Source: a virus. Taken from it: a stretch of DNA of 63,018 nt. The stretch lies in the IMG/VR virus record IMGVR_UViG_3300049075_000009, positions 1 to 63,018 of that record. One strand, given 5' to 3'. Positions 8,881 to 34,883 of the stretch are shown here, piece by piece. Every line of letters begins with the position of its first letter. Positions within the stretch are counted from its first letter, which is position 1. The position numbers and the translations under genes are program-made. The notes under the pieces were generated by a model. It was not told where the DNA came from. It worked only from the letters and a program-made list of their open reading frames with translations, and did not search any database.

Positions 8881-11172
8881 ATGGGCATAGAATTCGATTG
8901 GGCAAACTCAAAAACTTCTGAAGGCAATGCTACTTCCTTCGGCGGTTGTGACTTGCCTCTAAGCCCATCAAATAGTTTGGCAAATGACAAGACTTTAGTA
9001 ATTATCTTTAAGTGGGAGCCGCCATTTGGGGGGACGCCAACAGTAGGAACGCCAGTTGCAAGCGGTGTCACTGCCGATGTAGCGCCCTCTGTTGGCTCTG
9101 TGTCTGTCTTCTCTTTTCCTGCTGGCACGGCGGGGAATGCCTCTTTTACTTTCTCAAGCCCTTGCTCATTCTTCGCCGTCGCTGTTGCTGTTACGGGAAT
9201 AAAATCCTCATCGCCATTCTCCGCTGGCACATCGGGTACACAAACCGGATTCAGCCACAACATTATTGCTTCAACCACTGCGCCGGCAGCGGGCGCTGTA
9301 TTGTTAGGATTTGCAGGGCTAACTTCCGTAGGCGCGACGAGTCTGCAATTTCAATCTGCCGATAACATCATTGCTGGCATTTATCAGAACTATGTCAATC
9401 TAAGCGGAGCCATCTTTCAATGCGGTGGCAGTGTGGCGGTCAGATACGCGGAGGAGGCGAGCGATGTCGGGGCTCACTCTTGGTCATCTAGCGGCGGCGG
9501 TGGTGCTTTCGGCGGCGGTGCTTCGCCCCAAAGCGTCACATCGTCAATGCTGGTCTTTTGGATTAGTCCACTTTTGGCACCATCCGCGCCAATCGTTTTA
9601 ACCCCAAGAGTAAATGATAAATTCACTATCGGCTCAACTCAGGACGTGACCTATACAAGCGCGACAGACCCTGTGGTTGATACTGAGGATTTAACCTATG
9701 ACATTTATTACAGTGACAATAATGGCATCACCTACAACCTAATTGACACGACCGCCCCGGGCATTCTCACTTATGCGTGGGACACAACTGGCCTTCCCGC
9801 AGGCACCTATAAGATAAAGGTCGTAGCCAACAACGGCACGGATGACGGACAGCCAGGGTTTAGTGGTTCATTCCAACTTTTTGCAGATGTTCCGCCCGGC
9901 GCACCAACAAATCTTTCCCCCACGGGCTATATAAGCCAAGCGGCCCAGACCTTTACATGGTTGCCGGTCAACCCAGATTTCGATACCCAATCCCATTATG
10001 AATTGGAGTGGGACAATGACCAAGCTTTTGGTAGTTCATCTACGACCGGCACAGTGGCATCTACAGCACCCTCTCACGCATTCTCAGCTTCTACCGACAT
10101 ACTTTCAACCGTTGGTACTTTCTATTGGCGTGTAAGGACGAAGGGCGCGGTTGATGGCACCTTTGGCCCGTGGTCTGCCGCTGTGACCGTGATAGTTTCG
10201 GCTGCCCCTGCCACGCCAACCATAACAAGCAGCAATACAGCCACAACTGCTCTGTGGCCGATTACCTTCACGGCAATAGCGCATACTCAGTTCCGAATCC
10301 GCCTTGTCCTTAGCGGCGACCCTCGATTGAATACGATTGTTCAATCTTCTGCCTTTTCGTTCACGACACCTTTCCCCTTAGCAAATGGCGAAGTGTGGAG
10401 TGTGTTTGTTTCTGTGTTCGACCCCATAACGGGACTAGAAAGTGCAGAAGCAACCCAGACATTAACTGTCTCATACATAGGGCCGACGAAGCCGACGATT
10501 GCAGTAATAGCCTTGAGCGAGGAAGGCGCTTTTCAGATTATTATAGGCAACGCCACCCCAGCCGACATTGACCACAGTAGGATATATCGAAGCTTGAACG
10601 GCGCTGACTTTGAGTTGATAAGTCCAAGATTAGGGGCCAATGCCCTCTATTTAGACTACCATGTAGCCAATGACCTCTATTCCGACTACAACGAGTATAC
10701 CTACATGGCGAGAAGCTACAAAGTTTCCACTTTGGGCTTCACGGACTCAGACCCCAGCAGCAATGTTGGCATCATTTTAGGCAGTCTGCACCTTCACGTG
10801 GTTGATAAGACGAGCACGACAAGTAATGCAAGCTTAAAAGTAAAACTCTCCATTACCGACCCAATCATCAAGCGGTTTATTAAGAAGCAAAGAAATGTTG
10901 CGATGAAAGGCCGCACCCAATTCATCACTTATGCAGGACAGGCTAAACATACTGAGTTGGTTTATCAGGTTGTTATTCCGAGAGGTGACACTACTACCTA
11001 TGCTGCGTTAGAAGCCGTGTTTAATGCCGACGCGACCTTGTGTATTAGAGACACGGATAAAAACAAAATCTTCGGGCGCTTTTTAGAATTACCAAGACAA
11101 GACGATTTGGCCGCAAACCGATTCACCTTATCTTTTACCGAATCTGACTTCAGGGAGGTTTACACAAGGTAA
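8881..11172 (+). CDS. Minor/distal tail protein with FN3/Ig-like repeats
   Basis: 763 aa, starting 3 nt after the tape measure stop. Contains FN3-like segments (VPPGAPTNLSPTG...YELEWDND...WRVRT and AAPATPTITS...). Confidence 0.65.
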   Translation: MGIEFDWANSKTSEGNATSFGGCDLPLSPSNSLANDKTLVIIFKWEPPFGGTPTVGTPVASGVTADVAPSVGSVSVFSFPAGTAGNASFTFSSPCSFFAVAVAVTGIKSSSPFSAGTSGTQTGFSHNIIASTTAPAAGAVLLGFAGLTSVGATSLQFQSADNIIAGIYQNYVNLSGAIFQCGGSVAVRYAEEASDVGAHSWSSSGGGGAFGGGASPQSVTSSMLVFWISPLLAPSAPIVLTPRVNDKFTIGSTQDVTYTSATDPVVDTEDLTYDIYYSDNNGITYNLIDTTAPGILTYAWDTTGLPAGTYKIKVVANNGTDDGQPGFSGSFQLFADVPPGAPTNLSPTGYISQAAQTFTWLPVNPDFDTQSHYELEWDNDQAFGSSSTTGTVASTAPSHAFSASTDILSTVGTFYWRVRTKGAVDGTFGPWSAAVTVIVSAAPATPTITSSNTATTALWPITFTAIAHTQFRIRLVLSGDPRLNTIVQSSAFSFTTPFPLANGEVWSVFVSVFDPITGLESAEATQTLTVSYIGPTKPTIAVIALSEEGAFQIIIGNATPADIDHSRIYRSLNGADFELISPRLGANALYLDYHVANDLYSDYNEYTYMARSYKVSTLGFTDSDPSSNVGIILGSLHLHVVDKTSTTSNASLKVKLSITDPIIKRFIKKQRNVAMKGRTQFITYAGQAKHTELVYQVVIPRGDTTTYAALEAVFNADATLCIRDTDKNKIFGRFLELPRQDDLAANRFTLSFTESDFREVYTR

Positions 11173-16300: not shown

Positions 16301-16879
16301 ATGGAACTATGCCGAGTCATCCTCATAGAAGACGACCCTACGCAATGCGAATTGCTGGGCGAGTTCCTTGAAAGGTCGCACGAAATTCGCTGTGAGTTCA
16401 TCCACACTGACCGCTTGCAGGCCGGTATAGGCATTCTACGCGATGCCCTTAATAAGCCTGAAGACATTGTAGTGATTGTGGATTTGGGCTTACCAGATGG
16501 CGAAGCCATGCGATTGCAGGCTATTTCAATGCTGAGGGCGATTAGTGAGAAGCCGGGGATTTTGGTTTTAAGCGGCGCTATTTCTGTTCAAGAATCTTTA
16601 CAAGCTATCAAGATGGGTGCGGACGGGGTGAGGCAGAAACCGCCTGAGAGTCCTGAAAGATTCGTCTGGTCTATTCTGGAGGTGGTCGAGAGGCGAAAGG
16701 CGCTTCTGTCCGCGTTGAAAATACAAGCGGAAAACTTCAAGCCAGAGACCGTGCGCACAAAGTTATTAGATAAGAAAAGCAAAATAGCGATTCTGACGGC
16801 GGCAACCGTGGCGGCTATCACAACTCTCATTGCAGGCTTTTGGGAAGCGATAAAGAGCTTATTTACAAAGGCTCATTGA
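16301..16879 (+). CDS. Response-regulator receiver (REC/CheY-like) domain protein with a C-terminal TM anchor
   Basis: VILIEDDP (acidic pocket), IVVIVDLGLPDG (phospho-acceptor Asp, D61), ILVLSG (S91), GVRQKPP (K113). C-terminal helix IAILTAATVAAITTLIAGFW. ATG abuts the upstream TAA. Confidence 0.8.
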   Translation: MELCRVILIEDDPTQCELLGEFLERSHEIRCEFIHTDRLQAGIGILRDALNKPEDIVVIVDLGLPDGEAMRLQAISMLRAISEKPGILVLSGAISVQESLQAIKMGADGVRQKPPESPERFVWSILEVVERRKALLSALKIQAENFKPETVRTKLLDKKSKIAILTAATVAAITTLIAGFWEAIKSLFTKAH

Positions 16880-18674: not shown

Positions 18675-19078
18675 ATCTACCAACCATCAAGCCCGAATAT
18701 AAATTCATCGCAGGCGGCATTCTTTTATTGCTGGCAATTGTTTTCGCCGTCAATCGCGCTACGAGTTGGTACGACGATTACCGGCACAGCAAGGTTGTGG
18801 AAGATTTGAAAATAGAGCGCCAAAAGGATATTGAGCGCGGGGATTTTTTCGAGACAAAAGCAACCAAGGCCGAAGGTGAAAAAGTTACATACCAAATCGC
18901 TTTAGAGATTGCTGGCAAAGATGCCCAAATCGCAATGGAGAAAGTAACAAATGCAGAACAGAAATTTAATCAGGAAATTGAGTCTATTGGTGTGGCTGTG
19001 CCTGAGTGCGAACGTTACAGCCGCTTACGGGCAAAGCTCGGGTTGCGCCCCGCCCCTTGTGAAACCGCAGGACAATAA
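18671..19078 (+). CDS. i-spanin-like protein (N-terminal TM, helical periplasmic part)
   Basis: GTG start overlapping the upstream stop (GTGA). TM helix FIAGGILLLLAIVFAV, then a charged helical region. Two C-terminal Cys. Confidence 0.5.
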   Translation: MNLPTIKPEYKFIAGGILLLLAIVFAVNRATSWYDDYRHSKVVEDLKIERQKDIERGDFFETKATKAEGEKVTYQIALEIAGKDAQIAMEKVTNAEQKFNQEIESIGVAVPECERYSRLRAKLGLRPAPCETAGQ

Positions 19079-19439
19079 TCAGAAGGTGCTGGTTGATATT
19101 GAGTTCCTGAAAGCCGCAGAAATAGCGATTGCCGACCGTGACAGGCTCAAGGTTGTATCCGAAGGACAGGCGGAAGCGTTGATGGCCAAAGACCAGCAGA
19201 TAGCGGCCTTGCGAGGTCTATTGCAACTTGAGAAGCAAATCTCTACTGACTGGAAAGAGGCGGCAACCGCGCGCAAAGACGCCCTGAAGACCGATGATAA
19301 ATTGATTCTGACCTACGATAAGAGGATTGCAGAACTACAGGCGGAAAGGGATGCCAGTCGCCGTGCAAATAAACTGTGGGGATTCGCTGGCGTTGTCTTG
19401 GGTGTGCTGGCGACCATCGCTATTAAAGGCAGTAATTAG
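18951..19439 (+). CDS. o-/u-spanin-like protein: signal/lipobox-like N-terminus plus C-terminal TM
   Basis: Starts in the +1 frame inside 18671..19078 (128-nt overlap). LSLLVWLCLSANVTAAYGQSSGC-APPLVKP, then a coiled-coil region, then LWGFAGVVLGVLATIAI at the C-terminus. Confidence 0.5.
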   Translation: MQNRNLIRKLSLLVWLCLSANVTAAYGQSSGCAPPLVKPQDNNQKVLVDIEFLKAAEIAIADRDRLKVVSEGQAEALMAKDQQIAALRGLLQLEKQISTDWKEAATARKDALKTDDKLILTYDKRIAELQAERDASRRANKLWGFAGVVLGVLATIAIKGSN

Positions 19440-19693
19440 CCTTGTTTCAAATGAACTTCCACCTTGAATAAATCAGAAATGTCATTCGTATAGCTTTGGT
19501 CTATTGAATGGACAACGTTATCAATAACGAATTTACCTGAGAAGTTTTCAGCAGAGGGGAATTTTTCTTTCCCGATGGGCGTTACATTGGATGACAAGTA
19601 TACGGACTGTCCCGGTTGGTACATTGGAAACGATTCAGCCCAAGATGAAAAGATGCATTTGTCTTCAAGCCAGAATGTCACGCTGATGTTCAT
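19436..19693 (-). CDS. Hypothetical protein (85 aa)
   Basis: ATG 19693 with GAGAGG upstream; the track start at 19735 is TTG. Its stop codon overlaps the stop of 18951..19439 (TTAG). Confidence 0.45.
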   Translation of the reverse strand: MNISVTFWLEDKCIFSSWAESFPMYQPGQSVYLSSNVTPIGKEKFPSAENFSGKFVIDNVVHSIDQSYTNDISDLFKVEVHLKQG

Positions 19694-19777
19694 TGAATTC
19701 GCCTCTCTTTTGATGCTCCAATAATACCATATCAATTCCCCTGTGTGTTGGCCGGTTGGGTTGGGGGAAGGGGGAAA

Positions 19778-20206
19778 TTACGCTGCTCTATCAATTTCCG
19801 CTAGGCAGAGTTTGTATTGTGCCGGGAATCTGATGCTGCCGTCTTCATCCCAGCCTTCAAAAAGATGAATGTTGTACACGCCTTGATACCAATGAATCTG
19901 CTCTAGCCTTTCCCGTAGGCTTTCTGCATCAATAACGGCATCTCTCACCATCTTCCTGGCAATGATAGTCCTGTCGGTAAATAAGCAGGGATAGCCTATG
20001 CGACTAGATTCTTCGTGGTCAGCGAAATCCGGTTGTGTGCGTTCCTGAAATACCCACAGTTGACCCGTAGGTGCCACAGTAGAAGCCGAAAGTAAACGGT
20101 GTTGCGCTTGTTCGTTAAGTGGTCGTTTACACTCCGGACAAGCCCATGTGCGTAGAGAAACAAAGGCGTGTCCACACCATTCTTTCAGGTCAGGGTACTC
20201 ATTCAT
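19778..20206 (-). CDS. Hypothetical protein with CxxC zinc-ribbon-like motif (142 aa)
   Basis: ATGA coupling to the upstream gene. WCGH...WACPECKRPL. Confidence 0.55.
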   Translation of the reverse strand: MNEYPDLKEWCGHAFVSLRTWACPECKRPLNEQAQHRLLSASTVAPTGQLWVFQERTQPDFADHEESSRIGYPCLFTDRTIIARKMVRDAVIDAESLRERLEQIHWYQGVYNIHLFEGWDEDGSIRFPAQYKLCLAEIDRAA

Positions 20207-20415
20207 TTTTTTGCCTCATATCGTTTGGTCTTGCGGTTGTACTTCCCATATTTGATTTTAGTCGAGCAGCGAGTAGTAACCGGATTATTGCACGGCTCAT
20301 TCTTTCTCGCAGACCACCCGCAACTGCATTGCTCGAAGCAATCACAGGTGCCAGCCTTCGCGCCACACTGAGCGCATTTCCAATCCACTTGGCTGAATAG
20401 GTGTTCAATTCCCAT
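20203..20415 (-). CDS. Small Cys-rich protein (70 aa)
   Basis: GGGGGAGGG RBS. Nine Cys (WKCAQCGAKAGTCDCFEQCSCGW...PCNN...RC) and a basic tail. Confidence 0.55.
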   Translation of the reverse strand: MGIEHLFSQVDWKCAQCGAKAGTCDCFEQCSCGWSARKNEPCNNPVTTRCSTKIKYGKYNRKTKRYEAKK

Positions 20416-20462
20416 AAGTCAATCATCCCTCCCCCAATCCGCGCCCCGAAAAAAAAAGACAA

Positions 20463-20783
20463 TTACTTTTTGCGCCTATCAATTCCGATTTCGTTAGCAT
20501 CAAGTTGAAACCCTAATTTCTTGGCGGCATCCTGTAATGGTCTGTAATGATGGTAATTATCCGTATTGCGCCAAAGGGTTTTAAGTCGTTCAATGATGAC
20601 CTCTTTGGGCTCCTCTATTAACTCGACCGTTACGCGATACCTGTGGACGCTTACAACGCCATTGAAACAATCGGGTTCCTTTTGCTCCCATTGTGAGAGG
20701 TTGTAGGAATTGATTTTGCGGAAGGTTTCAAACTCCAGTTTGGTTTCTTCCACAACTACAGGTTTCGTTTTTGATTTGCTCAT
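20463..20783 (-). CDS. Hypothetical protein (106 aa)
   Basis: ATG with GAAGGGGA RBS. Confidence 0.55.
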   Translation of the reverse strand: MSKSKTKPVVVEETKLEFETFRKINSYNLSQWEQKEPDCFNGVVSVHRYRVTVELIEEPKEVIIERLKTLWRNTDNYHHYRPLQDAAKKLGFQLDANEIGIDRRKK

Positions 20784-20832
20784 TTAATTCTTTCCCCTTC
20801 CTCCCTGGTCGCCTGCCGACAAAAGAAAATGG

Positions 20833-21078
20833 CTACCTGCCTTTTCCCTGCGTGACGTGCCAGCCTGTGCAGAACATGCATTTATAGGGCTCAACTATTC
20901 CCCATTTGGCATTCGCCCTGCCCTTGCAGATTCGTTCTGCTGCGTCCTCTGATGCAAAGAAACGCTTAGTGCCACAGCCTTTCAATTTCGCCTCAGCCGC
21001 AATTATCTTCGGTGATAAGGGTTTCTTCAGCGCCCTACGCTTTAAGCCGTTTATCCTGTTCTTTATAGGATTGCCCAT
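20833..21078 (-). CDS. Small basic protein with C-terminal CxxC..WH motif (81 aa)
   Basis: Internal ATG 21078 is preceded by GGAGA. ...YKCMFCTGWHVTQ. The longer track ORF (to 21189) overlaps 21035..21337 by 155 nt. Confidence 0.4.
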   Translation of the reverse strand: MGNPIKNRINGLKRRALKKPLSPKIIAAEAKLKGCGTKRFFASEDAAERICKGRANAKWGIVEPYKCMFCTGWHVTQGKGR

Positions 21079-21337
21079 GTTTCTTTCTCCTGCTTCGGCA
21101 TCTATGATGCGTGTCGCCCGATTGCTTCCAAGTATCAACGCCAGCCTGCAAAGTCCCTGTGGCATTTTCGGCGTCCACATTGTTCGCATTCAGATAGAGC
21201 GTTGCGCCACAGAGATTGCATCGAACCGCCGTCACGATATTGAATTGCGGGACGACTTGGCCTATACGGGTGTCGGCGTTGCCTGCCTCTGCAAAGGATT
21301 GAGCCCCTTTTTGTAATGTCATTTTTTCTGCTTTCAT
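21035..21337 (-). CDS. Hypothetical protein (100 aa) with CxxC motif
   Basis: ATG 21337 overlaps the TGA of the upstream small ORF (ATGA), with GGAAGGAAAG upstream. VRCNLCGATLYL. Confidence 0.45.
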   Translation of the reverse strand: MKAEKMTLQKGAQSFAEAGNADTRIGQVVPQFNIVTAVRCNLCGATLYLNANNVDAENATGTLQAGVDTWKQSGDTHHRCRSRRKKHGQSYKEQDKRLKA

Positions 21338-21507
21338 TCAGTTATCTTTCCTTCCTCGCTCAGGCTAAGAGCCGCCAAGCAGATATTACGTGCCGAGAAG
21401 TAGCGCAGGGCTTCAGGGAATGGCACATACACGGGCTTGTTATCGCCGTCTGTGACTTGGTTGTGCAGGCGCTTCTCCAGGGCTTGCAGGTAAGCCAAAC
21501 GCTCCAT
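21334..21507 (-). CDS. Small gene (57 aa as it stands) whose original 5' end was split off by the IS insertion
   Basis: MERLAYLQALEKRLHNQV... The ATG lies 2 nt from the left target-site duplication. Removing the IS restores an in-frame 12-codon N-terminal extension from 24410. Confidence 0.5.
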   Translation of the reverse strand: MERLAYLQALEKRLHNQVTDGDNKPVYVPFPEALRYFSARNICLAALSLSEEGKITE

Positions 21508-21508
21508 C

Positions 21509-21516
21509 AATCCTTG
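21509..21516. repeat. Target-site duplication AATCCTTG (left copy)
   Basis: Identical 8-mer directly abuts the outer ends of both inverted repeats (second copy at 24376-24383). Confidence 0.85.
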
Positions 21517-21540
21517 GGCATTGATATACTTGACTCACCT
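21517..21540 (+). repeat. Left terminal inverted repeat GGCATTGATATACTTGACTCACCT
   Basis: Reverse complement of 24352-24375 is GGCATTAATATACCTGACTCACCT, a 22/24 match. Confidence 0.85.
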
Positions 21541-21558
21541 AGCCTTTTATGCGATAAT
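21530..21558 (+). promoter_or_regulatory. Sigma70-like promoter in IRL: TTGACT-17 nt-GATAAT with TG extension
   Basis: -35 at 21530-21535, -10 at 21553-21558, TG at 21550-21551. The ATG at 21566 is only 7 nt past the -10, so the transposase mRNA would be leaderless or nearly so. Confidence 0.45.
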
Positions 21559-21565
21559 CTGAGGC

Positions 21566-22504
21566 ATGGAAAACCAAGTTGATAACTTTCCGAAAACATT
21601 ACAAGAAGCAATCATATACTTCTCAAATCCTGATGTTGCTTTACAGTTCATGGCGAATCTCCGCTGGGCAGATGGCGTTGCCGTTTGCCCCAATTGCGAA
21701 TCGAAAGAATCCAGCTTCATATCAACTCGTCGCGTGTGGAAGTGTAAAGCCTGTAAAAAGCAATTCACGGTTAAACTTGGAACCATCATGGAAGACTCGC
21801 CAATCGGTCTTGATAAATGGCTTTGTGCTATGTGGATGATTGCCAATTGCAAGAACGGTATAAGCTCTTACGAGATTCACCGTGCTATCGGTATCACTCA
21901 GAAATCCGCTTGGTTTTTGCTCCATCGTATCCGCCTTGCAATGCAAACGGGCACATTTGAAAAACTCTCTGGCACTGTTGAATGCGACGAAACTTTTGTT
22001 GGTGGCAAAGCCAAGAATATGCACAAGAGCAAACGCGAAGCGAAGATTCAAGGTCGCGGTGCGACTGGCAAAGCCATTGTTATGGGTGTGCTGGAACGCG
22101 CTGGCGAAGTGAGAGCGAAGGTTATACCCAACACAACGCAAGAGACATTGCACAGCCACATATACGATAGCGTAGGGAAAGGTTCTGAGGTCTTTACAGA
22201 CCAGTTTCCTGCATACAACGGTTTGGAATCCGATTTCGTTCATAAGTTCGTTAATCACGCTGTTGAGTATGTCAACGGTCAAGTTCACACAAACGGCATA
22301 GAGAACTTCTGGAGCCTGCTGAAACGCGGCCTGAAAGGTACATACATCAGTGTGATGCCTGCTCATTTATTCCGCTATGTTGATGAACAATCATTCCGAT
22401 TCAATAACCGCAAAGTAAACGACGCAAGCAGATTCCTGCTGGCCTGTGCATCAATCAAAGGTCGAAGGTTGACCTATAAGACATTAACAGGGAAAGGTGA
22501 ATAA
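21566..22504 (+). CDS. IS1595-family (ISXO2-like) DDE transposase
   Basis: Zn ribbon CPNCES...WKCKACKKQF, then ECDETFVGGK, DQFPAYNGL, HTNGIENFWSLLKRGLKGTY..SVMPAHLFRYVDEQSFRFNNRK, the typical DDE_Tnp_IS1595 pattern. Confidence 0.9.
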   Translation: MENQVDNFPKTLQEAIIYFSNPDVALQFMANLRWADGVAVCPNCESKESSFISTRRVWKCKACKKQFTVKLGTIMEDSPIGLDKWLCAMWMIANCKNGISSYEIHRAIGITQKSAWFLLHRIRLAMQTGTFEKLSGTVECDETFVGGKAKNMHKSKREAKIQGRGATGKAIVMGVLERAGEVRAKVIPNTTQETLHSHIYDSVGKGSEVFTDQFPAYNGLESDFVHKFVNHAVEYVNGQVHTNGIENFWSLLKRGLKGTYISVMPAHLFRYVDEQSFRFNNRKVNDASRFLLACASIKGRRLTYKTLTGKGE

Positions 22505-22531
22505 GCCTTTTAGTGATAGAATAGAGGTATT

Positions 22532-22729
22532 ATGAAAACGATAACAGGCTCTAAAACAAAAGACTCAGATTCGTCTATGAACGCTTCGAAGTCGAGAGAA
22601 TTTCAAGCCTTCGAAGCGTTAGCTAAAGCATTGATTATAGTGCCTAAAAAGGAAATTCTTGAAAAAGAGCGAGAGGCAAAACACGTTAAAACTAAAAGTG
22701 AACAACGAAAGAAAAGGGTATCTGGCTGA
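22532..22729 (+). CDS. Small Lys-rich passenger ORF (65 aa)
   Basis: ATG preceded by AGAGG and by a TGaTAGAAT extended -10. No family recognised. Confidence 0.4.
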   Translation: MKTITGSKTKDSDSSMNASKSREFQAFEALAKALIIVPKKEILEKEREAKHVKTKSEQRKKRVSG

Positions 22730-22749
22730 TTTGCTTCGAAGCTATAGAT

Positions 22750-24357
22750 ATGTCACCTACTAAGCCAAAAAAAGAACAACTTTCAGAAGATGAAAGATTT
22801 CCGCTTTTCGCTCTATTAAAAGCAAATCCCATCCCTCTGATACTTTTGAGCGAAGATGAAATTTATAACCTTGCAGACGCTAAATTGATTCAAGCCCTCC
22901 AAGAAGATGACCGAATTGAAAGAAAGCCTGCGGGTATTCACGCAGAGCATTTAGGTAACTATTTCAATATGTGGTCAAATACGCCTGCCAATGGCGGTTT
23001 AATCGCTGTTGGTATTGATGATGACGGCGGGCTTAGTGGATGCATCAAGGCAGATATTCAACACATAAACGATTTGCAAAGTCGTGCGGGTGGGACTTAC
23101 TGCCCAGATGCAAGATACAACTTTAAAAAAGTTCTGTTTAATCACCCTGACGGTACACCCGATTACTTGTTGTTATTTCGTGTCAAATATCATGAATCAA
23201 GAGTAATTCGTAATAATAAAGGCCAAGTTTTTGCGCGTTTCGGCGACAAAAAGAAGCAGTTAAATGCAGACCAAATCCGTGAACTGGAGATAGATAAAGG
23301 ACAACTTCTATTCGAACAAGACCCAACGACCCTTGAATATCCAGCAGATTTTGACATTCAACTAATTAAAGAATGTGCTGATAGATTCAGGAAATCTAAA
23401 GAACTTCCGTCTGATTCCTTAACCGACGAGGAAATCCTTGAATTGCTATTTTTAGGTAAAATAAAAAAAGAGAGATTTTTGCCAAACAATGCTTGCGTAA
23501 TTGTTTTTGCAAAACACCCACGAGAAGTTTTCCCCGGCTGTCGGATTCGCTTCTTTCGCTTCGAAGGTGAGGAAGAGGGGACTGGCGAGAAATTTACTCC
23601 ACAAAAAGATATATGGATAGACATGGGCAGTATTCCCTATTTAGTTCGGGAAGCAGAAAGGGTACTTGATAGCCAACTTCGGACTTTCACGAGATTAGGT
23701 AAAAATAATAGATTTCAAACGACTCCTGAATATCCTCGTACCGCTTGGTATGAAGCTTTAGTAAATGCTTGCGTTCATCGCTCATATAGCCTTCGAAACA
23801 TGAATATTTTCGTCAAAATGTTCGATGATAGAATCGAAATTGAGAGTCCAGGCGGCTTCCCACCATTGGTTACACCTGAAAATATCTACACATCACACAA
23901 CCCTCGAAATCCTAGAATTTTTGACGCCATGCAATATCTAGGTTTCGTTGTTGGCGCACGAGAGGGCACGAGGAGAATGCGCAAATCAATGCTTGATATG
24001 AAGCTACCATTGCCAGAATTTATCCAACGCTCTGAGACATACAATACAGTTCTTGTGACGCTAAGAAATGACTATAAACACAGAAAAGTTTTGCTAGATT
24101 CCGATGTGGCCGGATTCGTTGGTGAAGTGATTTTTAAAACACTTTCTCAAGATGAAAAACGCGCCATAAATTTTATCGCAGAACATGGTGAAATTAGCGT
24201 CAGTGATTTGCAGCGAATTACGAAAAGGTCTTGGCACTCTGCAAGAAACTTACTTGTAGGATTGGTTAAAAGAAGCATTCTATTAAGCACCCACCGAGTT
24301 GAAAAAGTTAAAAAGTCAGGACGTGACACCGCAGCAAGATACACCCTCAACAGGTGA
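22750..24357 (+). CDS. Passenger protein: AlbA_2 (Schlafen-like) N-domain + HATPase_c_4 (RecG-C-like) + C-terminal wHTH
   Basis: ERKPAGIHAEHLGNYFNMWSNTPANGGLIAVGIDDDGGLSGC (AlbA_2 pattern). WYEALVNACVHRSY...IEIESPGGFPPLVTPENIY..NPRNPRIFDAM (HATPase_c_4 pattern). The stop lies inside IRR. Confidence 0.7.
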   Translation: MSPTKPKKEQLSEDERFPLFALLKANPIPLILLSEDEIYNLADAKLIQALQEDDRIERKPAGIHAEHLGNYFNMWSNTPANGGLIAVGIDDDGGLSGCIKADIQHINDLQSRAGGTYCPDARYNFKKVLFNHPDGTPDYLLLFRVKYHESRVIRNNKGQVFARFGDKKKQLNADQIRELEIDKGQLLFEQDPTTLEYPADFDIQLIKECADRFRKSKELPSDSLTDEEILELLFLGKIKKERFLPNNACVIVFAKHPREVFPGCRIRFFRFEGEEEGTGEKFTPQKDIWIDMGSIPYLVREAERVLDSQLRTFTRLGKNNRFQTTPEYPRTAWYEALVNACVHRSYSLRNMNIFVKMFDDRIEIESPGGFPPLVTPENIYTSHNPRNPRIFDAMQYLGFVVGAREGTRRMRKSMLDMKLPLPEFIQRSETYNTVLVTLRNDYKHRKVLLDSDVAGFVGEVIFKTLSQDEKRAINFIAEHGEISVSDLQRITKRSWHSARNLLVGLVKRSILLSTHRVEKVKKSGRDTAARYTLNR

Positions 24358-24375
24358 GTCAGGTATATTAATGCC
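24352..24375 (-). repeat. Right terminal inverted repeat
   Basis: See IRL; 22/24 identity in inverted orientation. Confidence 0.85.
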
Positions 24376-24383
24376 AATCCTTG
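24376..24383. repeat. Target-site duplication AATCCTTG (right copy)
   Basis: Identical to 21509-21516. Confidence 0.85.
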
Positions 24384-24410
24384 CTTGCAACAGTGCTCAT
24401 GGACGGTCAT
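24376..24410 (-). pseudogene. Detached 5' fragment (ATG + 11 codons, MTVHEHCCKQGL) of the IS-split gene
   Basis: ATG 24410. The frame runs into the IS. After deleting the IS and one TSD copy it joins 21507 in frame (MTVHEHCCKQGL-MERLAYLQ...). Confidence 0.5.
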
Positions 24411-24421
24411 CGCGGCGGTTA

Positions 24422-24859
24422 CTACCCAACCTTGCCTTGATATAATCGGCATCCACACTCTACGGCATAGACGCATCTGCCGACCTGTTTCTTGGTGATG
24501 GCAATGTTATGCGTCGGGCAAATGTCTTTGCTCAATTTCTCAAGATGCTCAGCAATCTCTTTGTCCTGCCGCTCAAGGTCGCTTTCAACCTGCTCCAGCG
24601 TGGGGAACTCTGCCTTGCCGCAGGTAAAACGACATTCCAGTTGGTGTTCGCCCCAAGTCTGATTCTTAAAGCAAGCGTCGACAAAGGGCGTACCATCACG
24701 ACCTAAATCAACGTGAGCCCCCACGGTCTTATAATCAACGCCAGCGCCGCAAATCTTGTTAAAGAATCCGTTGTGATGAATGCAGGTATCAAGCCTGCGC
24801 CTGATTCGCTCCTGTCGGCGTTCATCATCGGTCATGTGCATTAGCGATTTATAACCCAT
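24422..24859 (-). CDS. Hypothetical Cys-rich protein (145 aa)
   Basis: ATG 24859 preceded by AAGGA; the track start at 24901 is GTG. Confidence 0.5.
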   Translation of the reverse strand: MGYKSLMHMTDDERRQERIRRRLDTCIHHNGFFNKICGAGVDYKTVGAHVDLGRDGTPFVDACFKNQTWGEHQLECRFTCGKAEFPTLEQVESDLERQDKEIAEHLEKLSKDICPTHNIAITKKQVGRCVYAVECGCRLYQGKVG

Positions 24860-24891
24860 AATCTTTCCTTTTTCGTCGCTCGCGGCGGCAA

Positions 24892-25149
24892 CTACCCCCA
24901 CACAGCGAACTCACAGGCATATTCGTGTAGGTAATGCGTCTTGCCTGCGTCATCCGTAATCTCTGCGTTCATCTCGTCATCGGTTAATTCGTTGCCTGTT
25001 TCGTCGTCAATAAGGACAAGCGACTCTTGAACATAGGCGTTCGTATCGCCTTCGCGGTGGCCTGTTTCTCTAATGCGAAGCACTCTGCCATCCGGTAAAG
25101 TGACCACGCCCTCCATGTCTAAATCGGTATCTGGTAATGACGGGTACAT
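24892..25149 (-). CDS. Acidic hypothetical protein (85 aa)
   Basis: ATG 25149 preceded by AAGGAGAG. Confidence 0.5.
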   Translation of the reverse strand: MYPSLPDTDLDMEGVVTLPDGRVLRIRETGHREGDTNAYVQESLVLIDDETGNELTDDEMNAEITDDAGKTHYLHEYACEFAVWG

Positions 25150-25198
25150 AATTCCAATCTCTCCTTTTCCTTTTTTGGTCGCGCCAGGGGAGGGGCAG

Positions 25199-25573
25199 CT
25201 ACAAAAGCTCACAATCCGCTGGGTGAACATTTAGGCGCCGGTTCGGGAATCTTGGCGAATCCTCATCGAACAGCACATCAAAATTGGCGCTGCTGTTATG
25301 ACCGACGATTACACCGCAGGAATTTCCGACCTTCACCCGTTGCCCACACCGAACATCAGGCAAGCCCCTATATTTAGCCATACGGATGAACTGCTCTGTA
25401 CTTTCTGGCCTGCCAATCTTGCGCGCTCTGATTGCGGTGAAAGGCACATCCGGCCACGGTTCGCGCACGTCGCGCCAATACTCAGCCTTTGCTTTGCCAG
25501 CACTTCGAGCATTGATTTGCTTCGTCCAGTTGGTGCCGATAACAGACACTTCAAAAGAATAAACTTCGTTCAT
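25199..25573 (-). CDS. Hypothetical protein (124 aa)
   Basis: ATG 25573 preceded by AAGGA. Confidence 0.5.
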   Translation of the reverse strand: MNEVYSFEVSVIGTNWTKQINARSAGKAKAEYWRDVREPWPDVPFTAIRARKIGRPESTEQFIRMAKYRGLPDVRCGQRVKVGNSCGVIVGHNSSANFDVLFDEDSPRFPNRRLNVHPADCELL

Positions 25574-25619
25574 ATTTTCCTTTCGTGCTTTTGGCTTGCC
25601 GGGTGGCAAGGGGTCGGGG

Positions 25620-25874
25620 CTACAAGCCAAGTGCAGTCTGTATTTCCTTCTGTGCGTCTTCTTTGCCCTTCTGATATTCGCGCTCGATTATCAAGCCAAT
25701 GGCTCTCGGTATTTTATATCTATGTTCAGTTCCGTCTCCTAAAACGCGACTGATGGCGTAATCCGCATTGCCCCATTTGCCATAGCTCCAGTTTGGCGTC
25801 CAATTGCTCAGACTGAAATCTACGTGTTCAGGTAATTCCGAAAGCGGTTTCTCTATCGTGTCGTTATATCCCAT
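25620..25874 (-). CDS. Hypothetical protein (84 aa)
   Basis: ATG with GGAAAGGGGG RBS. Confidence 0.5.
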   Translation of the reverse strand: MGYNDTIEKPLSELPEHVDFSLSNWTPNWSYGKWGNADYAISRVLGDGTEHRYKIPRAIGLIIEREYQKGKEDAQKEIQTALGL

Positions 25875-25958
25875 CCCCCTACCCCCTTTCCTTCGGCGTT
25901 TTCAGGGCCAACACCTATGCTGGCAGGGTTAGCCACCAGCACAGGTAAGGCCACAGGC

Positions 25959-26915
25959 TCACGCTCTGGCATAAATCGAAACAGTGATTGAATCCGGCGC
26001 GGAAGCAGGGTAATCGGTCTGTGAATGCCCTGAAAGGCTGACGCCAAACTTCTCGCCCTTCACGGCTTCTGAAGCGATGGCTTCGACGGCAAATTCTTTG
26101 GCTTTGATAAGCTGATAGCTTGCGCCCTTGTCAAGTTCGCTTGTTGATTCCAGCTTCATAATCTGGTCAACCGCATTTTCTTTCGTTACTTCTGCTGATA
26201 CACTCCAACTCATAATTCGCTCCTCTCCATCAAGCAGGTATGGTTTTGGTAAACCAGCCCGCTTGCATTCCTCGTTAATGTTTCGTTTACGCAGTTCAAC
26301 AAATTCCGCCATCGCCCTCTGAATATCAGGGTCGGTTTTAAGGTAGTTGTCAAAAAGCGCATCCAGTTCGTTTGTGTACTTGATTTGGCTTTTAGCGGCA
26401 CTGGTTTTCAGCGCCAGTAACTCATCAATAATCCCCTGAAGTGTAACTAAGCTAGCTTGTTGCATTCTGTCTTGAACGTGGCCTTTGGGCTTCAGCGCCT
26501 TGACCCGTTCTGCGTTCGTTACGATGATTGCCAGCACCTCATCAATGGTTTGGTTGCGTGAGGCGGCAGACTGACCGGCAAAAGCTACGCCAGCATTGAA
26601 AGCGGCCTCTAGTTGGTCGCGCTCCTGTTTTGTGTTTACGTGCGCATCGGATTCGGCGAACCAATCCATAAAGGCGTTCTCGGTGCTGGCCTTGTCCTGC
26701 AAAGGCAGAGGTGTGGGTTGTGGGCGATGGTTCCAGGCGGCGATGGCCTTATCTTTGTCTTTATAGGAGTAGCTACTAGGCTGTACGGCGCAACTACAGT
26801 AATCTTTACAGGTCACATACCATCCAGCATAGCCATTGAGTAATTCTGCGCTGCCCCCACAAAACGGACACGGTAACAACTCATCCTTTTGCTGCTGCGG
26901 TTTGGGATTGGTCAT
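25959..26915 (-). CDS. Lar-like (restriction alleviation) zinc-ribbon N-domain fused to a ~250-aa helical extension
   Basis: LLPCPFCGGSAELL....YVTC...C......DKDKAIAAWNHR matches the Lar family pattern. ATGA coupling upstream. Confidence 0.55.
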   Translation of the reverse strand: MTNPKPQQQKDELLPCPFCGGSAELLNGYAGWYVTCKDYCSCAVQPSSYSYKDKDKAIAAWNHRPQPTPLPLQDKASTENAFMDWFAESDAHVNTKQERDQLEAAFNAGVAFAGQSAASRNQTIDEVLAIIVTNAERVKALKPKGHVQDRMQQASLVTLQGIIDELLALKTSAAKSQIKYTNELDALFDNYLKTDPDIQRAMAEFVELRKRNINEECKRAGLPKPYLLDGEERIMSWSVSAEVTKENAVDQIMKLESTSELDKGASYQLIKAKEFAVEAIASEAVKGEKFGVSLSGHSQTDYPASAPDSITVSIYARA

Positions 26916-27097
26916 GGGGTCTCCTTTACTGGCAAGCCCAACAACAAGCTATGTAAGTCTTGCGCTTCTTCAAGCGTGGTTGTTTTGATAATGACCCTGT
27001 AGTGATTCACCGTTCCGTTTGATTCACAGGTCACAAATGAAGCGTCAACTAATTTGCGCAGCCTATCGTAGGCTATTAATATCTCATCGGTTTTCAT
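26912..27097 (-). CDS. Small hypothetical protein (61 aa)
   Basis: ATG 27097 preceded by GGGGGAGAG. It overlaps the upstream stop by 14 nt. Confidence 0.4.
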   Translation of the reverse strand: MKTDEILIAYDRLRKLVDASFVTCESNGTVNHYRVIIKTTTLEEAQDLHSLLLGLPVKETP

Positions 27098-28313
27098 CAC
27101 TCTCCCCCTTTCCCTCTTCCTTTGTCGCCACCTGCTCTTTCCAGCGATACTGGGCGTAATAGGGGTTATGCTCAAGCAAGCCGATGGAATGCAAATAATC
27201 TAAGGCGGCTGTGTGCTTCGCTATTACATCCTTGTCAGCACTCGAAAAGCCTGACATCCATCCATCATCACCTTTGGCAATCTCACCGACTATAATCTTT
27301 GCAAACCCCACCGCCTGCTCTTTGGCCTGCGCCAGTTCGGTTTGGGCAAGGGATAGTTGCTGGCGAAGTTCGGTAATAGATGTATTGTTTTCGCCAAAGA
27401 TAATATTTGATTCCACGCGGCGTTGCGCTTGATGACGTATCTCATCTTCCGTCTTACCACTGCTCCAGCCCTTACCGTAGACCAATTCAGCTAGCCATTC
27501 CCGTAGGTCGCAATACTGCTTTTGCCATTCATGGCTGTCCTGACTGGCTGTGGCTACCTGCGCGGTGAGGGAGGCAAGTTGCCGCTTTGCTTCGGTAAGC
27601 ATTACTCGCAATTTATCTTCCTTCCCTGCGATTTCATTGCCCCAATTCTCATAGCAGCCACAGTGAAGAAATGCCCCGTTTGGCAGTTTGTGAACATAAG
27701 AGAGTTGAGTGAACCCGCTATTGCATTTGACGCAGGTATAGGTGAGCCCTGTTGGCGACTGCCGAAAGGTTAGCTTTTCTGTCGGTAGCTTCTCTGCGTT
27801 TGCCTCAGCCCGTTCTGCCCGGTCGCGCAGGGCGGTGAGGGCATCTGAAACCTTTAAGCATAAATCTATCTGATTTAGTATTGGGCCATCTATCTTGAAC
27901 ATTTGCACGAGCGCAGACTTAACCCATCCGTAGGCTTCTCTTGTCTCCTCATCTTTGGCCTGCCCCCGGTTGAGAGTTTTGACGAGCCAATCAGAGAAAG
28001 CATTGCCCTCCATATTCCAAAGGAAATGGCCGTAGCAATTCACAATCTTATATTCACCGGGGCCGGTACGCTCTGCTCTGACAGGAAGAAAGGTATCAAA
28101 CCCGTTTACGGATTCTGGTTTAAGCGTTATATGTTCCAGTGGCGCTTCTCCGGTTCTGTGCCAGCAATCCTCACAAACCGTGAAGGTCACATTACCTACG
28201 GACTCTCCGCACCTGATGCACTTGTTCCGCATACAGGCGCAGTTGCCATCTGCTGGCTCTTTACAGTTCGGACAAAGTTCTTTTTCCTTGTCGTCTTTGG
28301 GTGTGGTGGTCAT
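27084..28313 (-). CDS. Hypothetical protein (409 aa) with N-terminal multi-Cys zinc-binding region and coiled coils
   Basis: ATG 28313 (TGATG coupling). CPNCKEPADGNCACMRNKCIRCGESVGNVTFTVCEDCWH, and later CVKCNSGF...LHCGC. Confidence 0.55.
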   Translation of the reverse strand: MTTTPKDDKEKELCPNCKEPADGNCACMRNKCIRCGESVGNVTFTVCEDCWHRTGEAPLEHITLKPESVNGFDTFLPVRAERTGPGEYKIVNCYGHFLWNMEGNAFSDWLVKTLNRGQAKDEETREAYGWVKSALVQMFKIDGPILNQIDLCLKVSDALTALRDRAERAEANAEKLPTEKLTFRQSPTGLTYTCVKCNSGFTQLSYVHKLPNGAFLHCGCYENWGNEIAGKEDKLRVMLTEAKRQLASLTAQVATASQDSHEWQKQYCDLREWLAELVYGKGWSSGKTEDEIRHQAQRRVESNIIFGENNTSITELRQQLSLAQTELAQAKEQAVGFAKIIVGEIAKGDDGWMSGFSSADKDVIAKHTAALDYLHSIGLLEHNPYYAQYRWKEQVATKEEGKGESDENR

Positions 28314-31294: not shown

Positions 31295-32536
31295 TCATTT
31301 TTGCGAGGTTTTTGCTATTTTGCCGTAACGTGTGGTGTTGTGAGGTTTTTCGCCTTCAGTGTCCGGGTTGGACTCGTTTTGGACACTTGAGAATTTCTCA
31401 TCGTCTAGCACGTTCATCCCTGCTAATTCCGAATCGGCGGATGAATGCAAGTAGCGCATGGTCATGAAGGCATCACCGTGGCCCAGCATTTTACCGATGG
31501 TTTTTATATCGATGCCGGATTGGGCCATACGGGATGCGGCAGTGTGGCGCGTGTCGTGAAAGACAATGCCACCATCAAGGTCTTGGCCGAACGGCACCTT
31601 TGCCCTTTCGCAAGCCTTTCTAAATGTCCTTAAAATCCAGCGCACCGGAAACCCTTCCTTAACATCGCTGGCGAAGAGATAAGGGCTTGAGGGGGTGATT
31701 TTTTGCTTTAACGCTTCTGCCAGATTTTTCGTCATCCTCACATTGCGCACTTCTTTATTTTTCGTCATCGGGCTGATATGAGAAGCCTGCACGACTATCC
31801 AACCGTTCGGAGCGCCAGGCGCTTTATTGAAGTTTATTGATGATGTTTTTAACCCCAATATCTCCCCTATCCTCATTCCCGTTCTTAACGCTACCCAAAA
31901 TACTAAGGCGACGGTCTTGCGTTGTTGCCGTTGCAGTTCATCATTGGCGTACCAGGATGGGTCGTGTAAAGAGGCAATGATTGCTTGTTCCTCTTCTTTA
32001 CTGATTACCCTCTCCCTGTAGGCATTCACCTTCTTGACCTGCTCGTGCGCTGGCGGATTCCAGTCTTTAAGCTTTGGAAAAAGATTCTTAACCTGCTTCA
32101 AGGCTGATACTAAAAAGTGCAAATCATCCACGGCTGTGTTTGCTGAGACTGTAGGGAGGTTCAGGCGGTGCGAGTAAAAGTTGTTTAGGTGCTGGCTAGT
32201 AATAGACTCAATTAATAATTTTGGATAGAGGGTTGAAAAACTTGTCAAAACTCGCCCGTATTGCTTCAGAGTTGACTGACTCCTGTGCAGGTCAGTAAGT
32301 TTTTTCAGTATCGCCTTTTTCAAATCCTCAACGCTAATATCTATTAAATCTGACCTAAACTTGTACTTGCCTCTTTTATAATCTGTCCTGATGGCATTAA
32401 TGGCGTCCCTACATTCTTCCGCTGTTTGAAACCCCTTTTCCCTTATCCGCCTATCGTCAACTTTATATTTCCCGACCCGTATATCAAACTTCCAGGCCCA
32501 ATTCCCTTCCCTGTCTTTATACTTTTTAATCGACAA
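31295..32536 (-). CDS. int: Tyrosine recombinase / phage integrase
   Basis: 413 aa. C-terminal catalytic box ...GMRIGEILGL..., HDTRHTAASRMAQSGIDIKTIGKMLGHGDAFMTMRYLH (R..H-x-x-R..Y). TTG start. Confidence 0.9.
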   Translation of the reverse strand: MSIKKYKDREGNWAWKFDIRVGKYKVDDRRIREKGFQTAEECRDAINAIRTDYKRGKYKFRSDLIDISVEDLKKAILKKLTDLHRSQSTLKQYGRVLTSFSTLYPKLLIESITSQHLNNFYSHRLNLPTVSANTAVDDLHFLVSALKQVKNLFPKLKDWNPPAHEQVKKVNAYRERVISKEEEQAIIASLHDPSWYANDELQRQQRKTVALVFWVALRTGMRIGEILGLKTSSINFNKAPGAPNGWIVVQASHISPMTKNKEVRNVRMTKNLAEALKQKITPSSPYLFASDVKEGFPVRWILRTFRKACERAKVPFGQDLDGGIVFHDTRHTAASRMAQSGIDIKTIGKMLGHGDAFMTMRYLHSSADSELAGMNVLDDEKFSSVQNESNPDTEGEKPHNTTRYGKIAKTSQK

Positions 32537-34298: not shown

Positions 34299-34332
34299 GG
34301 TAGGTGGTTCGGCTGGAGATGAGCCGCCTACC
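34299..34332. terminator. Imperfect hairpin between convergent genes (GGTAGG..CGGCT-7 nt-AGCCG-CCTACC)
   Basis: Nested 6-bp and 5-bp stems read in the sequence. Overlaps the repressor stop codon. Confidence 0.3.
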
Positions 34333-34783
34333 TCTTATAGCTCTTGCTGCTACCTGCGGGTTTTACTTCGCTGGTCGCCTCTTGTACGTTATCTGCAAGT
34401 ACCTGTTCGGATAGGTCGCCCTGCGGGAAATGAATGGTTTGGGCGGCTTGTTGGGCTTCTAATACTTCCAGCCTGTTAAATATTTCTGTAAAAATCTCCG
34501 GCAATGATGCCTCTAATAATAATCGCTCCACTTGAGATTGTTTTTGCATTTCCTGGGTTGCTCCAATCTCTTTTGAACCCTCACCAGTTAATAACCAGTG
34601 AAGTGAAGTTCTGGTTACGTTGCTGATTTCAATTATCTTATCCAATTCCGGTAAATTTTTCCCATCGCGCCACCCGTAGACAGCTTGACGGGTTATATTC
34701 AGCTTTTCGGCTAGGTTTGCTGCTGTTCGGCTTTCCGATGCCTCCATTATCCGGCTGAATAATTTCTCCCTATCAATACTCAT
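34328..34783 (-). CDS. CI-like repressor (XRE-family HTH), 151 aa
   Basis: Internal ATG 34783. TAANLAEKLNITRQAVYGWRDGKNLP is an HTH_XRE pattern. Divergent from the cro-like gene. No S24 peptidase-like C-domain visible. Confidence 0.75.
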   Translation of the reverse strand: MSIDREKLFSRIMEASESRTAANLAEKLNITRQAVYGWRDGKNLPELDKIIEISNVTRTSLHWLLTGEGSKEIGATQEMQKQSQVERLLLEASLPEIFTEIFNRLEVLEAQQAAQTIHFPQGDLSEQVLADNVQEATSEVKPAGSSKSYKR

Positions 34784-34793
34784 CTTAGAAAAA

Positions 34794-34860
34794 GTAAGCA
34801 ATGCTTCACTTTTTTGTTGACTTACCGTAAGCGGTGCTTTACACTCCCGCTTGTTAACAA
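34794..34860. promoter_or_regulatory. Operator-like repeats in the switch region
   Basis: GTAAGCAATGCTTCAC (34794-34809) and GTAAGCGGTGCTTTAC (34827-34842) match 13/16. Also a perfect palindrome TTGTTAACAA (34851-34860) and CTTACcGTAAG (34821-34831). Confidence 0.5.
34817..34845 (+). promoter_or_regulatory. Rightward promoter TTGACT-17 nt-TACACT (PR-like)
   Basis: -35 at 34817-34822 and -10 at 34840-34845. The second operator-like repeat overlaps the spacer and -10. Confidence 0.5.
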
Positions 34861-34883
34861 ATAAACGCGGAGCAAACTTTAAC

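Follow-up and report, generated by a model that had tools for sequence, protein, structure and literature searches.

A transporter-type IS1595-family insertion sequence with a Schlafen-type gene in a temperate tailed phage

In the viral stretch IMGVR_UViG_3300049075_000009 (positions 1-63,018; the window hereafter is this entire stretch of 63,018 nt), a segment of plus-strand genes interrupts a leftward operon of small phage genes, which raises the questions of what kind of DNA occupies 21509-24383, how it entered a phage genome, and what it brought along. The segment is very probably a genuine IS1595-family insertion sequence (IS) of the transporter type, 2,859 bp long (21517-24375) and apparently still functional, situated in the DNA of a temperate tailed phage from soil. 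Downstream of its transposase gene, it carries a small conserved open reading frame (ORF) and a gene for a Schlafen-type protein. An earlier note on this DNA had proposed a recent IS1595-family insertion that split a small phage gene; the family identity is confirmed below, and gene disruption and recency deserve more cautious wording.

Anatomy of the element

The element is bounded by left and right inverted repeats (IRL and IRR) and by two copies of a target-site duplication (TSD), and contains the following features.

21509-21516, no strand: left TSD copy, AATCCTTG (direct reading)
21517-21540, plus strand: IRL, GGCATTGATATACTTGACTCACCT (direct reading, recomputed)
21530-21558, plus strand: promoter of the transposase gene, TTGACT-17 nt-GATAAT, its -10 being TG-extended (the top sigma-70-like site in 19000-27500)
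21566-22504, plus strand: IS1595-family transposase, 312 aa (Pfam, NCBIfam, alignment)
22532-22729, plus strand: small conserved ORF, 65 aa, with the motif F..FE.LAK.LI.VPK.EI and a Lys-rich tail (clade comparison)
22750-24357, plus strand: passenger gene, 535 aa, with a Schlafen (AlbA_2) domain, a GHKL ATPase domain and a C-terminal winged-helix/helix-turn-helix (HTH) domain (Pfam, PADLOC, AlphaFold (AF2) model)
24352-24375, minus strand: IRR, which in reverse complement reads GGCATTAATATACCTGACTCACCT (direct reading, recomputed)
24376-24383, no strand: right TSD copy, AATCCTTG (direct reading)

The two inverted repeats (IRs) match at 22 of 24 positions, after which the likeness of the two ends stops, and both TSD copies, identical at 8/8 positions, directly adjoin the outer edges of the repeats; repeats and flanking 8-mers were recomputed and agree with those first read from the sequence. 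A C precedes the 8-mer at both sides, so a 9-bp duplication is formally possible. Over the whole 63-kb window, IRL and IRR form the cleanest inverted pair within 8 kb, and a 30-nt inverted pair at 77% elsewhere in the window reaches a similar raw match count. The inverted repeat by itself is not decisive, its raw match count being not far above background. The chance of an 8/8 duplication at a fixed position is approximately 1.5e-5. What decides is the conjunction of the edge-exact 8/8 duplication, a transposase gene between the arms, and the agreement of IRL and of IRR, each at 20/22 positions, with the end consensus of a clade of related elements (GGCAATAATATACTTGACTCAC), which was built independently from 55 other elements.

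Between IRL and IRR, all three ORFs lie on the plus strand, separated by gaps of 27 and 20 nt, and the surrounding genes run on the minus strand; the ORF layout thus agrees with the description in the earlier note of a plus-strand island within a leftward phage operon. One transposase gene, one IR pair and one IS copy exist in the window, and the GC content of the IS is 41.8% compared with 49.2% for the phage. Both passenger ORFs are placed between the transposase gene and IRR, which makes the element a transporter IS (tIS), the name of passenger-carrying IS1595 elements after Siguier, Gagnevin & Chandler 2009 (as cited in PMC8101967 and PMC12561309). The IS1595 family is described as having an 8-bp TSD, a zinc finger in all groups except IS1016, and a DDE_Tnp_IS1595 domain (PMC8101967), and the element possesses all three. 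The family-typical 8-bp duplication and the carriage of passenger genes, both named in the earlier note, are confirmed. No Rfam family was matched in 19000-27000. An almost certainly spurious 88-aa plus-strand ORF at 21316-21582, called by both JGI and Logan, spans phage DNA, the duplication, IRL and the start of the IS and runs antisense to the 57-codon phage gene described below.

The N-terminus of the transposase matches the zinc ribbon Pfam PF12760 Zn_ribbon_IS1595 (1.2e-14, 54.4 bits against a cut-off of 25.4), and the C-terminus matches PF12762 DDE_Tnp_IS1595 over the complete profile (1.3e-41, positions 1-153 of 153). Simultaneously, NCBIfam NF033547 transpos_IS1595 is reached with 189.9 bits (cut-off 75), which supports the family assignment proposed initially. 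In an alignment with 77 relatives, the zinc-ribbon residues C41, C44 and C60 and the catalytic residues D141, D212, E246 and K253 are invariant; the observed catalytic signature is D-D-E-K and the observed ends are GGYAATAATATAC. Ends of the form GGnnAT(A/T)AT combined with D-D-E-K presumably stand nearer to the ISNwi1 group of ISfinder than to ISPna2, which is a lead and no test, and annotated records go no further than the name 'IS1595 family transposase'. The -35 hexamer TTGACT of the transposase promoter falls within IRL, and its equivalent in IRR is CTGACT. This layout is clade-wide: at the IRL ends of 56 elements, the -35 (TTGAC) is part of the IR and a TG-extended -10 is located approximately 17 nt inward.

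Relatives of the element and their cargo

A transposase search over one genome per species yielded 578 relatives, and a scripted end search on the best 80 of these 578 (57-71% identity), which were fetched, delimited 55 complete chromosomal elements. Related IS with matching ends, for which the earlier note had pointed to ISfinder, are therefore plentiful among the best 80. The 55 elements have ends of the form GGYAATAATATACTTGACTCAC, an arm-to-arm match of 18-22 of 22 positions, and a perfect 8-bp duplication in 54 cases, with an AT-rich palindrome, CTAATTAG, as the target consensus. The elements measure 1,963-6,163 bp, the median being 2,740 bp; every one is longer than a transposase-only IS, and all 55 carry cargo. 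The top 23 transposase relatives all belong to Acidobacteriota, mostly Pyrinomonadaceae metagenome-assembled genomes from soil. By these comparisons, the window element is an ordinary member of a large cargo-carrying IS1595 clade. It shares with the known IS1595 tIS the zinc ribbon and DDE transposase, IRs starting with GG, the 8-bp duplication, and the genes between the repeats. Compared with known IS1595 elements, it is a new IS: identity to other transposases reaches 81% at most overall and 42% at most in cultured plasmids, and its clade, mostly from uncultured soil Acidobacteriota, has cargo in every complete copy examined and the ORF of about 60 aa in most.

The four nearest homologues of the 535-aa cargo protein (70-74% identity) are all situated behind an IS1595 transposase and an ORF of about 57 aa in chromosomal contexts. 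A complete sister element of 2,812 bp (L087:733-3544, TSD TAAATTTT) has the same three genes at approximately 70% nucleotide identity, and in this element, as in the window, the stop codon of the cargo gene falls inside IRR. The nearest transposases (81% and 77%) carry unrelated cargo; since closely related transposases are accompanied by unrelated genes, the cargo slot turns over quickly. The 119 cargo proteins of 56 elements fall into 82 sequence clusters, with Pfam and PADLOC matches to DUF3800 (12), DUF7689 (4), Panacea antitoxin domains (4), GmrSD (3), AIPR (2), AbiU (2, at 1e-157), Mrr and several methylases. To judge from these predicted domains, the matches are dominated by conflict systems. 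No conserved DNA was found past about 23 nt at the IRR end, which gives no sign of a site-specific cargo-exchange site.

Copies of the clade at many sites (the 55 elements and derivatives of the miniature inverted-repeat transposable element (MITE) type) show mobility, and the exact window IS is known from one copy; its own mobility is probable from its intact parts and from the behaviour of its clade. One MITE of 324 bp at L093:6368-6691 has the same terminal repeat and a perfect 8-bp duplication, CTTTCAAG. Another of about 110 bp, at L092:~84-193, is bounded by the same terminal repeat.

Meanwhile, an ORF of about 55-65 aa with a Lys/Arg-rich tail is present in 44 of 57 complete clade elements, whatever the cargo, and, on one strand or the other, usually adjoins the transposase gene at its 3' end; copies are located at L084:209-379, L085:623-793, L086:641-820 and L087:1767-1940. 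The 65-aa ORF of the window has no match in Pfam, NCBIfam or PADLOC and no consistent match in Pfam at E values up to 10, and a phmmer search against 1.8 billion representatives gave two matches only, the query being too short to inform. The encoded protein might be an accessory factor or a regulator of transposition.

The most interesting points at the level of the clade are the universal cargo, its defence flavour, the conserved small ORF, and the promoter built into the IR; the window element thereby points to a clade of IS1595 elements from uncultured soil bacteria with cargo in 55/55 complete copies examined and an unannotated small protein in most. Tentatively, the clade could be a dedicated cargo-shuttling platform and not an ordinary IS, in which a fixed core (the IRL promoter, the transposase and the protein of about 60 aa) is joined to a freely exchangeable slot and distributes genes between soil bacteria and also, as in the window, to the temperate phages of such bacteria. 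The slot would perhaps be filled largely with single- or few-gene systems, including AbiU, AIPR, GmrSD, Mrr, methylases, Panacea toxin-antitoxins, DUF3800 and Schlafen-GHKL. If this is true, a phage gains a ready-made superinfection-exclusion gene by a single transposition step.

In one survey, 92% of phages had no IS (Leclercq, Gilbert & Cordaux, PMC3429520). Similar to the rare tolerated phage IS (PMC3429520), the window IS occupies a non-essential part of a temperate phage, and, unlike phage IS in general, it also brings a defence-type gene. A related transposase occurs in 2 of 50,697 GenBank phage records, both of them metagenomic fragments of 4-5 kb. In IMG/VR, where insertions were counted per viral contig and may be located in phage DNA or in host flanks, 44 contigs encode relatives of the transposase; in 12 of them the elements are complete, bear cargo and have both an IR pair and an 8-bp duplication (perfect in ten, 7/8 in two), and one of the 12 lacks the GG-type ends of the clade. 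The window case is thus uncommon and not unique. A predicted viral contig of 54.8 kb (IMGVR_UViG_3300036806_000054; L140:5004-10071) contains an IS1595 transposase (59%), then a homologue of the Schlafen-GHKL protein (55%) and two more ORFs, with an IRR-like end at 10050-10071 and no recognisable IRL; this pair may be a decayed relative in another phage or prophage.

Insertion site and age of the insertion

The IS is located among small ORFan genes between the integrase gene and the lysis and tail genes of the phage, and no functional PHROG was found for the ten neighbouring genes tested. The features that border it are as follows.

19436-21337, minus strand: five more small ORFans without a PHROG match, also downstream of the insertion
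21334-21507, minus strand: 57-codon phage ORFan beginning MERLAYLQ..., directly downstream of the insertion (JGI gene call P0001)
24384-24421, minus strand: 38 nt that separate the right TSD copy from the stop of the 159-aa gene; part of a spacer (favoured) or the first 9 codons from ATG 24410
24422-24901, minus strand: phage ORFan of 159 aa, which directly precedes the insertion in the leftward operon

Removal of the element and one 8-mer joins ATG 24410 in frame to MERLAYLQ... in a frame of 69 codons, and the reconstructed empty site reads ...CGCTCCATCAATCCTTGCTTGCAACAG.... The earlier note took this frame for a gene that the insertion had cut after codon 12. The in-frame fusion holds; the reality of the gene does not find the same support. 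When searched against 5.8 billion proteins, the reconstructed 69-aa protein matched only its own 57-aa fragment. Upstream of ATG 24410, the sequence is ccgccgcg with no Shine-Dalgarno sequence, whereas ATG 21507 is preceded by cAAGGAttgATG (cAAGGAttg), with AAGGA at the usual short distance, and motifs of the GGAG or AAGGA type precede most of the neighbouring genes. This AAGGA is part of the duplicated 8-mer, whose left copy reads CAAGGATT on the minus strand; consequently, the insertion regenerated the Shine-Dalgarno sequence of ATG 21507. Furthermore, the restored gap between the stop of the 159-aa gene and ATG 21507 is 47 nt, and four other spacers in the operon measure 46, 49, 49 and 47 nt. 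The spacers of 46-49 nt in this operon (19693-25620, minus strand) have a pyrimidine-rich 5' end and a purine-rich 3' end that holds the Shine-Dalgarno sequence. Because the longer protein has no homologue, a Shine-Dalgarno sequence precedes only 21507, and the 47-nt gap resembles the other spacers, an insertion into a spacer just upstream of an intact 57-codon gene is the more likely reading of this sequence. In that case the 57-codon gene is probably intact, its ribosome-binding site having been preserved by the duplication.

The alternative, that the same IS inserted within a 69-codon gene starting at ATG 24410, cut it after codon 12 and inactivated it, is roughly half as probable. In its favour, excision restores an open frame from ATG 24410, and from further upstream, into MERLAYLQ..., and this ATG lies only 11 nt past the preceding stop, an arrangement that suits a packed operon with several overlapping genes. 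In this frame, codons 10-12 and the first base of codon 13 fall in the duplicated 8-mer. However, 12 extra stop-free codons are estimated to arise by chance about half the time, the JGI caller starts the gene at 21507, and no homologue displays conserved N-terminal 12 residues, in addition to the spacer-like length of the restored gap and the missing Shine-Dalgarno sequence at ATG 24410.

Whether a spacer or a gene was hit, the six distal genes (21507 down to 19436) are now located behind 2.9 kb of opposite-sense DNA. A sigma-70-like scan of 19000-27500 revealed no convincing leftward promoter for these six genes, and a polar effect on them is likely from the geometry. Metagenomes had been suggested as a source of the empty site, and the search there did not bear this out: metagenome contigs do not contain the empty site as an exact 26-mer, and no IS-free relative was found. 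In IMG/VR, no relatives of two flanking phage proteins were found, and a DNA search of GenBank phages and plasmids with the element and its left flank gave nothing useful.

The perfect duplication, from which a recent event had been argued, is a weak clock, since 54 of 55 chromosomal relatives have it as well; by calculation over 16 sites, a perfect 8-bp TSD bounds the divergence since insertion only to less than about 17% per site. The intact ORFs, catalytic residues and promoter, together with the foreign composition, would fit a fairly young insertion. No donor copy was found: exact protein look-ups gave only the phage contig itself, in two assemblies, and the IR pattern had no match in viral contigs and occurred on four metagenome contigs, all with unrelated elements or MITEs.

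An old, fixed insertion that is no longer mobile and was kept because the Schlafen cargo benefits the lysogen, in the manner of a domesticated moron, is a reading to be weighed, and an unlikely one. It would account for the lack of a near-identical transposase or cargo in the searched collections, for the two differences between the IRs, one of which destroys the -35-like TTGAC in IRR, and for the similar transposase and Schlafen pair in the viral contig L140 with no recognisable IRL, and the perfect TSD, uninformative in this clade, does not speak against it. However, the transposase ORF, its catalytic residues, the zinc ribbon and the promoter are all intact, and the GC content of the IS has not shifted towards the phage value. 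Chromosomal copies with perfect TSDs, too, commonly have imperfect IRs (18-21 of 22).

The Schlafen-type passenger protein and the phage that carries it

The cargo protein contains a Schlafen domain (Pfam PF04326 SLFN_AlbA_2, 29.6 bits against a cut-off of 25.3), followed by a GHKL ATPase domain (PF13749 HATPase_c_4, 7.9e-18), and several of its homologues have MarR/HTH Pfam domains at the C-terminus. The Ex4ExK motif corresponds to E52-DDRI-E57-R-K59 and is invariant in 40 homologues down to 50% identity; the N-box residues E335 and N339 of the GHKL domain are invariant in the same 40 proteins. The AF2 model (pLDDT 85) matches DIP2311 (3LMM) over the full length and, in parts, the nuclease domains of mammalian SLFN5/11/13/14, the GHKL kinases PDK, BCKDK and ThkA, and a winged helix. 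The predicted architecture is Slfn-HisKinase-HTH, that is, a stand-alone 'Schlatpase' with an HTH. PADLOC labels the protein with its pAgo model PDLC02394 (1.8e-38), of which profile positions 32-449 of 1121 are covered. An assignment to Argonaute was rejected: only the N-terminal module of the model is matched, no Argonaute domain is found in Pfam, and the covered region is the Schlafen plus GHKL module, so that the cargo protein of 535 aa is not an Argonaute.

Ex4(E/D)xK is the published catalytic motif of bacterial Schlafens, for which tRNA cleavage in defence is described, and Slfn-HisKinase-HTH accounts for 19.2% of the bacterial Schlafens in one survey (PMC13056530). The cargo resembles this class in its AlbA_2 domain with intact Ex4ExK, its PF13749 GHKL domain, its short C-terminal HTH, and its length of about 530 aa. 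Unlike the members of the class in chromosomal defence islands, the window copy resides on an IS inside a phage. 'Schlatpase' denotes the supradomain of SLFN and PF13749 in SLFN-Argonautes, in which ATP-driven tetramerisation activates the nuclease, and a defence system demonstrated by experiment has this module as its effector (bioRxiv 10.64898/2026.05.29.728809). The SLFN-pAgo of Runella zeae (RzAgo) has an N-terminal SLFN plus GHKL module homologous to the cargo, whereas the cargo ends after the HTH at residue 535 without a PAZ/MID/PIWI core, and any sensing must differ between the two. The only structural relative solved over its full length is the uncharacterised DIP2311 of Corynebacterium diphtheriae (PDB 3LMM), which has the same three-part architecture, at approximately 20% sequence identity to the cargo. 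RorSlfn5 exhibits Mn2+-dependent cleavage in the tRNA anticodon arm. On account of this tRNA cleavage and of the ATP-driven tetramerisation of RzAgo through GHKL, the most likely function of the cargo, by analogy, is that of an oligomerising RNase (tRNase) under ATP control, active in defence or abortive infection.

It is improbable that the cargo is instead a DNA-binding regulator, an accessory factor for the IS, or a participant in a phage-unrelated host process. The C-terminal HTH/winged helix would suit such a role, annotation routinely lists such proteins as transcriptional regulators or as 'RecG-like', and a conserved small ORF with no assigned role accompanies the cargo. Furthermore, 30% of bacterial Schlafen genes have no defence genes nearby. 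The four architectures chosen for tests in E. coli included HisKinase fusions, and of the seven systems tested only two, the DUF262-Slfn and Ig-like-Slfn fusions, protected it (PMC13056530). Against this, the invariance of E-x4-E-x-K in homologues favours catalysis over mere binding, the SLFN plus GHKL module is the effector of a defence system, and the same slot in sister elements holds Abi, restriction and toxin-antitoxin genes. The unrelated cargo of closely related transposases, in addition, means that this cargo is not needed for transposition.

The phage replicon encodes TerS, TerL, a portal, a head protease, a major head protein, tail proteins, a tape measure and an endolysin. The features that bear on its lifestyle and completeness are as follows.

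1-127, identical to 62892-63018, no strand: terminal overlap of 127 nt (circular assembly)
31295-32536, minus strand: tyrosine integrase (context gene)
34328-35083: CI-type repressor (context gene)

The integrase and the CI-type repressor indicate that the phage is temperate. The 127-nt identical ends represent the overlap of a circular assembly, so that the genome is complete at approximately 62,891 bp without host flanks. The contig ends lie within the structural module, and phage DNA borders the integrase to either side; what was assembled is therefore the excised (attP) form, which suggests that the phage with the IS is still able to excise and replicate.

An assembly artefact, in which the phage contig took up reads of a chromosomal IS by mistake, is highly improbable and was rejected: IS elements are a classic cause of misassembly, several relatives stand at contig ends broken within the transposase, and the two assemblies probably derive from the same reads, but a chimera cannot explain 8 bp of phage sequence duplicated at both outer edges, a separate Logan assembly made with a different assembler has the same junctions with 0 mismatches over 12.9 kb, and the contig closes as a circle with the phage modules in order.

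Several points weigh against a functional tIS that carries a defence gene from a bacterial host into this phage. The IRs differ at 2 of 24 positions, and AATCCTTG agrees with the target preference of the clade in the 3' half only. No second copy of exactly this IS was found in the collections searched, where identity reaches at most 81% for the transposase and 74% for the cargo. Neither a related phage nor the empty site was found, and the pre-insertion state is a reconstruction. The host assignment comes only from the taxonomy of the nearest transposases, and the two assemblies probably originate from the same sample and are thus independent in software only. Lastly, no member with the exact Slfn-GHKL-HTH architecture is known to act in defence, protection of E. 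coli being limited to the DUF262 and Ig-like fusions (PMC13056530).

For the preferred reading of a tIS inserted upstream of an intact gene, the following route may be proposed. The element would have transposed into the DNA of the temperate tailed phage, where a staggered 8-bp cut gave rise to the duplication, most probably from the chromosome of an acidobacterial (Pyrinomonadaceae-like) host in which the phage was then resident as a prophage. The landing site was probably the 47-nt spacer, and the duplication would have regenerated the ribosome-binding site of the 57-codon gene. The site would be dispensable, so that the phage remained viable, as the complete circle in the excised configuration suggests, and the six distal genes would be transcriptionally uncoupled from the leftward operon. 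Meanwhile, the small ORF and the cargo would be expressed from the IRL promoter, independent of phage regulation, and in a lysogen the cargo would act as a superinfection-exclusion 'moron'.

IS1595 elements with passengers, IS in dispensable phage regions and bacterial Schlafen defence genes have each been described singly, and the locus overturns none of this. What it adds is three nested and fully delimited mobile layers, a defence-type gene in an IS in a temperate phage, which together offer a concrete route by which a phage may gain a host immune gene through transposition and not through illegitimate recombination. It likewise adds a natural vehicle for the Slfn-GHKL-HTH class, which is common and has a function so far predicted.

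No tRNA genes were found in the window. Further genes of the phage comprise a 318-aa protein with a Lar_restr_allev (restriction alleviation) domain (25959-26915, minus strand), a C-5 cytosine DNA methylase (40967-42169, plus strand) and a weak methyltransferase-like ORF (374-1030, minus strand), which form the counter-restriction kit of the phage itself. A 192-aa response-regulator receiver protein (Pfam Response_reg, precomputed annotation; 16301-16879, plus strand) is located between the tail genes and the endolysin, and a receiver-domain protein in the late region of a phage is unusual. In the replication or early-right region, a 266-aa T5orf172/MUG113 protein of the GIY-YIG-like nuclease superfamily is encoded at 44342-45142 on the plus strand.

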